DNA of 64,000 nt, taken from positions 112,516 to 176,515 of the forward strand of contig CBDANC010000013.1 of the NCBI GenBank assembly GCA_965197425.1, written 5' to 3'. Under the pieces are notes generated by a model that saw only the letters and a list, made by a program, of their open reading frames with translations, was not told the DNA's origin and ran no database searches. Source of the DNA: Bdellovibrionales bacterium (GTDB lineage: Bacteria > Bdellovibrionota > Bdellovibrionia > Bdellovibrionales > JAUICD01). Below are positions 49,547-50,659 of this stretch, piece by piece (within the stretch, counting starts at the first letter, position 1; each line of letters starts with the position of its first letter). Made by a program: the position numbers and the translations under genes.

Positions 49547-50659
49547 TTATACACTCCAAGGAGGGGTAGTAGCAATTGATCCTGTATCTTTACCACCTTT
49601 TAAAATATTAAAAGTTTTTGCAGACCCTACATTTAAAGTTCCTAAATAGTACAAATTGTACTTACTTATACTTCCAGATTCTTTTGATAGAAACTCTTCT
49701 TTATACAAACTATCTTCTACGTAAATATCTACTTTGAAAGTGTAACACTCAAACAATATATCACCAGCAGAGTTCTGTTTGATTGTGTTATAGCCGTTGT
49801 AGTAATTTAGATGTTCTGAAGGTGCTTCACCAATAACAATAACTTTAGGTTTCATTCGATTTAACCACAGCTCAGGTATTTTTCCGCTGTCTCTACCATG
49901 ATGAGGTGCAAATAAGATATCAACAGAGTCAATGTTTCTATCCTTAAAGTTTTTTTCTTTATTCAATAAGTCCACTAGACTAATTGGTGTTTCAATTTTT
50001 ATTTTGTGCATAAAATCTGATTCTAAATCACCCATAAATACCATGTTTATTCCGTTTTCTGAGTACATAATAATTGGGGATATATTGTTTGGACTTAAAT
50101 CATGTTTTGCTGATTCTAAAGCCTGTTTGTAATGTATATTATCAACTACAGGCCAAAGGATTTTAAAACCTAATCTAGATAGAACGGCATATCTATCAAG
50201 TGAAGTTTTATTTTTACAATTGTTGTCTCTAAAACTTGCCAAAAGCCTATCAGTCGGTGATTGAACGTTATCTTGATTTTTGCCATTTATAAGACTAACG
50301 AAAAGAGAGTTTTCACAACCTCTGTACAAATAAGAAGCTTTATTAGAATCCTTTAATTCACAATATTTATCAAAATCTTTTGTACCATCAACCTTCTTAG
50401 TTTCATTCTCGACAACATAAAAATCAGTAATATTTAGTTCATTGTCTAAAATACTCAAACCTTTGATATGATCATTGTCTGGATGAGTGGATATAAATCT
50501 AATATTTCCTTGATTTGACATATTAACTATTTCGTCAAGATTTTTTTTGCCATGGTCACTGTCGTCCAAACAACAATCTATAACAGTTAGATCTCCAGAA
50601 TTATGTTTTATATAAAACATATCACCATTACCTACAGAAAAAGACTTTATAATACTCAT
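49547..50659 (-). CDS. ComEC/Rec2-like metallo-beta-lactamase-fold hydrolase with C-terminal tail
   Basis: VGNGD, THPDNDH, MGDLE, APHHGRDSG; tail GGKDTGSIATTPPWSV. Confidence 0.87.
   Translation of the reverse strand: MSIIKSFSVGNGDMFYIKHNSGDLTVIDCCLDDSDHGKKNLDEIVNMSNQGNIRFISTHPDNDHIKGLSILDNELNITDFYVVENETKKVDGTKDFDKYCELKDSNKASYLYRGCENSLFVSLINGKNQDNVQSPTDRLLASFRDNNCKNKTSLDRYAVLSRLGFKILWPVVDNIHYKQALESAKHDLSPNNISPIIMYSENGINMVFMGDLESDFMHKIKIETPISLVDLLNKEKNFKDRNIDSVDILFAPHHGRDSGKIPELWLNRMKPKVIVIGEAPSEHLNYYNGYNTIKQNSAGDILFECYTFKVDIYVEDSLYKEEFLSKESGSISKYNLYYLGTLNVGSAKTFNILKGGKDTGSIATTPPWSV

Follow-up and report, generated by a model that had tools for sequence, protein, structure and literature searches.

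Why should a predicted anti-phage hydrolase end in a tail like those of enzymes that are cut and conjugated by E2-type proteins, with an E2 gene directly behind it? The question is raised by MBL2, a gene in a 64,000-nucleotide stretch of Bdellovibrionales DNA (the whole stretch is called the window here). MBL2 lies in a minus-strand run of four genes (MBL1, membrane protein, MBL2 and E2-SEC-C), with genes for an HTH protein and an IrrE-type peptidase divergent from it:

48854..49540, minus strand: E2-SEC-C, 228 aa, a CBASS short-type E2 with H85, C96 and H148 and a C-terminal SEC-C zinc motif
49547..49627, minus strand: C-terminal tail of MBL2, 26 codons and stop, ending in the P-W-x-x motif of E2-SEC-C partner enzymes
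49547..50659, minus strand: MBL2, 370 aa, a ComEC-like MBL-fold hydrolase of PADLOC family PDC-M48B
50656..51120, minus strand: membrane protein of 154 aa and no named family, overlapping the MBL2 start
51107..52090, minus strand: MBL1, a second ComEC-like MBL (PDC-M48B model PDLC04675, E 7e-34)
52175..52483, plus strand: HTH repressor, capH-like, divergent from the MBL operon
52503..53033, plus strand: IrrE/ImmA metallopeptidase, capP-like (PADLOC capP, E 1.2e-34; Pfam M78)

The tail itself is as the original prediction described it. YLGTLNV is followed by 26 residues that finish in SIATTPPWSV (T-T-P-P-W-S-V), encoded at 49550-49627 with the stop codon at 49547-49549, and the AlphaFold2 model has pLDDT <50 across residues 349-370, which is consistent with the flexibility that had been claimed. 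The E2 gene does lie directly downstream: a spacer of 6 nt separates the MBL2 stop from the E2 ATG at 49540, and the E2-SEC-C gene is intact. A GGAG, contained in the W and S codons of the MBL2 tail, occurs 13 nt before the E2 start. Contigs of two runs of the same sample match the sequence with 0 differences; the first, a Logan contig, covers the entire stretch, and the other covers 49217-50214, including the MBL2/E2 junction. These contigs argue against an assembly chimera; they are not independent, and the sample may be the source. A promoter scan stayed at chance level (19 vs 23), and GC content of the tail (81 nt) was no marker of its origin.

The surrounding DNA has features of its own. 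Two diverged copies of a small membrane-protein gene (71-80% alike; 45622-46058 and 53224-53654) flank a 7.6-kb defence cluster, as if the cluster had entered between tandem paralogs. Candidate defence genes at 46271-48683 include a PDC-M19A/B pair (a DUF488 protein and its partner), a STAS-like DUF4325 gene, and DUF2188 (PDC-S16). Judging from translations, many secreted ankyrin-repeat and other repeat proteins are encoded at 3351-32730, in the first half of the window.

In sequence and predicted model, MBL2 has the ligands and fold of an active ComEC-like MBL-fold hydrolase. It matches PADLOC model PDLC04673 (E 7.5e-104), its metal ligands H59, D61, D63, H64, D211, and H253 (HxDxDH, Asp, His) are invariant in 33 aligned sequences, and its best Foldseek match is the ComEC MBL domain 9ic4 (E 7e-12). 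Fold and ligands suggest that MBL2 is likely a metal-dependent nuclease or phosphoesterase. The MBL2 branch measures 0.96 (vs a median of 0.2), and the protein departs from the family at 12 of 119 conserved columns (median 3, maximum 8); such fast evolution fits relaxed selection as well as adaptation. Two insertions of ~29 and ~17 aa (residues ~117-150 and ~224-240, approximately 50035-50310 and 49930-49990 in the window) are found in no other aligned MBL2, and the first replaces a conserved C-x-R-x-W-M-N stretch. These insertions may represent new E2 contacts or decay.

The E2-SEC-C protein is a stand-alone E2 with a Cys and two His and no E1 or JAB part, and it matches PADLOC CBASS E2 models (E 2.8e-25). 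Alignments of 8 and of 102 E2s show no variation at H85, C96, and H148, which by order and spacing correspond to H87, C101, and H152 of the Serratia E2. The position of Serratia Lys159, placed by spacing from the His, is Asp155 in this protein. The SEC-C zinc motif (Pfam SEC-C) consists of C206, C208, C217, and H218. The protein is very diverged: a single-sequence search for relatives returned only itself, and an alignment search returned 261 proteins, with identity of ~21-31% among the 120 matches listed. The closest E2 found (locus L163, 31% identity) follows a 327-aa CD-NTase with a bare flexible tail ending in S-A-P-W-A-S-F. Foldseek gave no match to the E2 model at E 0.001; the best rows were UBC folds, and Serratia E2 8hsb_B was among these weak rows (E 0.07). 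P0238 had no match in viral contigs, and E1, JAB, and 6A-MBL queries had no match in the source genome (E 1e-3 for E1/JAB).

Loci encoding E2-SEC-C proteins were collected from genome samples and plasmids to compare the enzymes encoded beside them. A locus with SEC-C only (L164) and one with an insertion sequence in the partner's place (L170) were left out before counting, and four near-identical Ligilactobacillus records entered as one. Every one of the 30 proteins whose genes immediately precede an intact E2-SEC-C gene ends in P-[W/Y/H]-x1-5, and 26 of them have PW. Twenty-eight of these partners are CD-NTase-type (seven assigned by PADLOC, five by record annotation, and the rest by motifs), and two are Pycsar PycC proteins (L172 and L179). 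The P-W is mostly preceded by Lys or Arg and by a linker rich in Ala, Ser, Pro, and Thr. The original wording of the motif, P-aromatic-small, had to be replaced by [K/R]-P-[W/Y]-x1-5, as the next residue is not reliably small; in the 28 non-redundant partners the six commonest are Gly (6), Ala (6), Arg (4), Ser (3), Cys (2), and Phe (2). No description of a P-W motif of SEC-C-bearing E2s was found in the literature searched, with subscription papers mostly outside the search. The two Pycsar loci (L172:895-3016, Chryseobacterium plasmid NZ_MN657149.1; L179:1-2139) encode an effector, PycC, and then E2-SEC-C, with a P-W/P-Y tail on PycC; they represent E1-free type II Pycsar.

MBL2 shares with this class of partners the P-W-x-x end, the flexible linker, and the position directly upstream of an E2-SEC-C gene. 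PW-x1-5 ends only 3 of the 1,182 long ORFs of its own genome, MBL2 being one of them, and the broad form of the motif ends 17. In a tail profile built from the 28 non-redundant partners, with MBL2 left out, the MBL2 tail scored 15.2 bits and ranked first of the 1,182 ORFs (next 10.2 bits); true partners scored a median of 13.2 bits when each was left out in turn (range -9.6 to 27.4). The motif was defined after the tails were seen, and the partners are partly kin; in a held-out check, three of four later loci fit, two of them near-identical, and the fourth was a remnant without a partner. At the level of sequence, the match of the MBL2 tail to the partner motif exceeds chance. The proposal of a CD-NTase-like tag grafted onto a hydrolase is partly supported: the tail matches the P-W end of all 30 partners, including PycC with its different fold, and the wording of the motif is amended.

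The original prediction pointed to two further tails in the window. MBL1 does have one, but it scores -13.3 bits in the tail profile and was rejected as an E2 tag; the closest homolog of MBL1 ends differently. The other belongs to a distant gene:

7424..8410, plus strand: CD-NTase in a patatin-CD-NTase CBASS of its own, 40 kb from the MBL operon and no part of it; no E2 gene adjoins it, and it is a possible trans substrate

This CD-NTase ends in PIVRATKPFA-HDDQILK, as had been stated, but the likeness to the MBL2 tail is limited: K-P-F-A is followed by 7 further residues (8 residues after P-F), and the tail scores -9.7 bits as is and 7.4 bits if cut 6 residues short. The patatin and CD-NTase genes (6507-8410) form a CBASS without an ancillary gene. 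Relatives of the CD-NTase have varied partners: some are fusions with a non-E2 domain, and others have Cap2 or a short E2 alongside. C-terminal CD-NTase fusions in L154 and L155 were considered as E2s and rejected, as they had no E2-profile match.

Within its own family, MBL2 is alone in having this tail. Among the 119 closest homologs, 97 stop ~2 residues past the last strand motif, two carry an unrelated 24-aa extension, and none has a P-W tail. A wider set of 136 MBL2-family loci (80 genome, 8 viral, and 48 metagenome) included 134 with an MBL2 frame and 116 with at least 900 bases downstream. None of the 134 frames has a P-W tail (two end in P-Y without any extension), and no E2-SEC-C gene was found behind MBL2 relatives in the 136 loci; of three weak matches, two were small E2-like proteins of a different type and the third was to SEC-C only. 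A 1.8-billion library yielded 482 representatives, and none of the best 150 has a P-W end; 48 of these reach the last strand, six of them with unrelated extensions. Sixty relatives of the source genome gave no full MBL2 match and one weak partial match. Matches by tblastn to residue 365-368 in L021, L023, L036, and L049 were rejected as tails because they pass a stop. No second tailed MBL2 was found in any of these searches, and the tail is known from one locus; the expectation that it would occur only where an E2-SEC-C gene follows is thus borne out by one family member against its tailless relatives.

One relative is informative about history. A Bdellovibrionales MAG (L023) carries capH/capP, MBL1, the membrane protein, and MBL2 in identical order, with no tail and no E2. 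Its genome had no E2-SEC-C match, and a search of 80 relatives of that genome matched only in the L023 genome. DNA after the stop in L023 and L018 gave no convincing alignment with the MBL2 tail. Judged by sequence, the L023-type operon likely represents the parent state. Since the tail matches the partner motif, is absent from relatives, and is missing together with the E2 from L023, tail and E2 were likely gained together. The MBL-TM-MBL operon would have picked up the 3' end of an E2-CBASS or Pycsar operon, joined in frame where MBL2 normally ends. Such a tail-capturing recombination is the simplest history, and we consider it highly probable.

The best described E2 of this general kind is that of the Serratia marcescens CdnG-E2 system, in which H87 and C101 cut the cyclase tail after Gly406, the product is held as a thioester and then passed to lysines, and H152 acts as a pH sensor (10.1101/2022.05.25.493364). 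The substrate needs Gly406; Ala is tolerated, and Val or Leu is not (10.1101/2022.05.25.493364). R360D abolishes linkage, and contacts outside the tail are required (PMC12948482). The E2 of these reports is ~162 aa and not of the longer SEC-C type (10.1101/2022.05.25.493364; PMC12948482), so the chemistry of E2-SEC-C is extrapolated from a short-type enzyme. The enzyme to compare with is an E1-independent E2 of the E2-CBASS type rather than Cap2, which the original prediction had also named. The E2 gene directly follows the tailed MBL2 gene, which makes MBL2 the likely protein to be cut and conjugated by this E2 in the one genome where they occur together. By analogy with Serratia E2-CBASS, the E2 would cut near the P-W motif via its His-Cys site, form a thioester on Cys96 with the help of His85, and transfer the product to a lysine of MBL2 itself (forming chains) or of a target. 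Conjugation might then switch MBL2 on and place the hydrolase under control in phage defence; DNA damage may lead CapH/CapP to induce the operon, whose membrane protein and MBL1 may act together with MBL2.

The functional outcome is less sure than the recombination history. We give about an even chance to the reading that the locus is a counterpart of 6A-MBL lacking E1 and JAB, where the E2, with His85, Cys96, and His148 kept, would process and conjugate MBL2. The in-frame join at a domain edge, the retention of catalytic and zinc residues by an E2 that has diverged greatly, and the presence of the motif on two other folds support a function of this kind. Weak points are the single locus and the Ser that follows the aromatic residue in MBL2 where the Serratia substrate needs Gly or at best tolerates Ala; among partners of this E2 subclass, Gly stands there in 6 of 28. 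Because the Serratia pair needs contacts outside the tail, a bare tail may not suffice.

Since no second tailed MBL2 was found, the arrangement may also be an inert scar of recombination: the operon would have recombined into an E2-CBASS locus and replaced the cyclase, leaving tail and E2 as leftovers without effect on MBL2. The singleton status of the tailed MBL2 in all searches, the existence of a tailless parent operon without E2 (L023), the long MBL2 branch with two private insertions, the body contacts required in the Serratia pair (PMC12948482), and the setting of the cluster in a mosaic defence island all fit this account. We nevertheless regard it as rather unlikely, given that the tail is joined in frame at precisely the point where the family normally ends, that E2 catalytic and zinc residues are intact though the nearest relative found is only 31% alike, and that the MBL metal ligands are kept despite much change elsewhere in MBL2. 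Chance read-through of a lost stop into the spacer, in which P-W would be an accident or a by-product of the E2 ribosome-binding site, is hardly credible. Unrelated extensions do occur in the family (2/119 homologs; 6/48 representatives reaching the last strand), and the GGAG does lie inside the W and S codons; against this, PW-x1-5 is rare in the genome (3/1,182), the MBL2 tail ranks first in the profile, DNA after the stop in L023 and L018 aligns unconvincingly with the tail, and a ribosome-binding site would account neither for the Pro nor for a frame that is fixed in 30 partners.

Two other explanations concern what the E2 does. It could be a non-covalent regulator or sensor that docks on P-W tails, with no cutting or conjugation. 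No Gly is conserved after P-W in the 28 non-redundant partners, the window E2 has no Lys at the Serratia Lys159 position, and no study of a SEC-C-type E2 was found among the literature matches listed. Docking alone is improbable, however: the lack of variation at His85, Cys96, and His148 in 102 E2s is what a catalytic site would show, and the constant place of the motif, 1-5 residues before the C-terminus, would suit a processed pro-tail. Service in trans to the orphan CD-NTase (7424-8410), with the MBL2 tail as bystander or competing decoy, is very improbable. In its favor, the genome yielded no other CD-NTase and no other such E2; the CD-NTase has retained a K-P-F-A tail and lacks an adjacent E2 gene, and some of its relatives precede Cap2 or a short E2. 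That tail fits the profile poorly, however, whereas the MBL2 tail ranks first; moreover, the two genes are 40 kb apart, all 30 intact partners are adjacent genes, and in L157 a CD-NTase relative is accompanied by a short-type E2 that lacks SEC-C.

If the E2 acts on MBL2, as in the processing and conjugation that we favor, a 26-residue tail would suffice for ubiquitin-like control of an unrelated enzyme. This would show the spread of such regulation between defence systems and would provide a minimal, ATP-free pair of tag and ligase. Whether recognition in E2-CBASS depends on the body of the cyclase is a question for which this locus offers a natural test. More tentatively, and with some doubt, P-W tail and E2-SEC-C could be a two-part, self-sufficient conjugation cassette carried by three unrelated defence enzymes (CD-NTases, Pycsar cyclases, and an MBL hydrolase) that works without E1, JAB, ATP, or a terminal glycine, and the locus would then mark the birth of an E1-free 6A-MBL analogue. 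Independently of the window locus, P-W without a conserved Gly points to cut-site chemistry in SEC-C E2s unlike that of the Serratia enzyme. No description of an MBL with a lone E2 was found in the literature searched (subscription papers were mostly outside it); 6A-MBL already provides a known case of an MBL served by an E2 machine.

Operon 6a was described as an E2-E1-JAB protein beside an MBL (PMC1779556), and fused E2-E1 proteins are described as conjugating the enzymes of type II CBASS, Pycsar, and MBL pathways (PMC11601596). The name 6A-MBL is taken from the latter source (PMC11601596), and the models used were NCBIfam NF058524 and NF058523; 6A-MBL had only passing mentions in the literature searched. 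With NF058524 (cut-off 220), MBL2 scored 25.6 bits and MBL1 23.6 bits, so neither is a 6A-MBL enzyme. The preprint of the Cap2 paper has no MBL passage, and the Nature version reportedly tested MBL tails.

Conjugation genes also occur near tailless relatives of MBL2. Genes for E1, E2, or JAB proteins lie within 5 kb of such relatives in 9 of 136 loci, a count that has no background rate (11 loci matched, two were read as patatin-only, and L085 is weak), and we treat this as a lead. Three of the nine loci carry a true 6A-MBL enzyme ending in Gly, and MBL2 relatives adjoin 6A-MBL in L045, L086, and L087. In L045:196-5906 and L087:4989-10433, the E2-E1-JAB protein of the 6A-MBL operon (1,140-1,169 aa) is extended by a patatin domain at its C-terminus, and the operon lies next to a tailless MBL2-family gene. 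In L071:1317-6641 and L084:2-5879, two small E2-like genes, a ThiF E1, and a JAB-like protein lie directly upstream of an MBL2-family gene; the sites of these E2-like proteins are His-rich and of a different type, and in L071 one of the two is fused to a Phd antitoxin domain. Relatives of the membrane-protein family precede tailless MBL2 genes. A scan of metagenomes for this family gave no match, and plasmids gave 180 records. On a Vibrio plasmid (L181:1-4357, NZ_CP085859.1), a membrane-protein relative lies behind a WYL gene, divergent from a 6A-MBL operon, and in L182 an IS5 occupies the place where the MBL would be, beside a gene of the membrane-protein family.

Comparison with known systems places the locus between several of them. 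Both window MBLs match PDC-M48B models of the PADLOC candidate system PDC-M48, a term not found in the literature searched; PDC-M48A had no match among the ten neighbouring genes scanned, and the PDC-M48B relatives of MBL2 differ in having neither tail nor E2-SEC-C. Like E2-CBASS, the locus lacks E1 and JAB and has a lone E2 with a His-Cys-His site, encoded immediately after an enzyme whose flexible tail contains Pro and an aromatic residue, together with capH/capP-type regulators. Unlike E2-CBASS, the upstream enzyme is an MBL hydrolase and not a CD-NTase, no cyclase is found among the window operon genes, the E2 carries a SEC-C motif, and the MBL2 tail has P-W-S instead of Y-G and does not show the helix/sheet E2-binding motif described for CdnG (PMC12948482; 10.1101/2022.05.25.493364). 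The Pycsar loci with E2-SEC-C (L172 and L179) likewise have a non-CD-NTase enzyme with a P-W/P-Y tail before an E2 of this class, but PycC is a signal-making cyclase with an effector, whereas MBL2 is a predicted hydrolase. With 6A-MBL the locus shares an MBL-fold enzyme with an added flexible tail near ubiquitin-type conjugation genes; it differs in that no E2-E1-JAB fusion (cap2_3) is adjacent, the window E2 having neither part, and in that the 6A-MBL tails seen end at or near Gly and MBL2 ends in P-W. The conjugation part of this locus is like E2-CBASS and its client is like 6A-MBL, and it is a member of neither.
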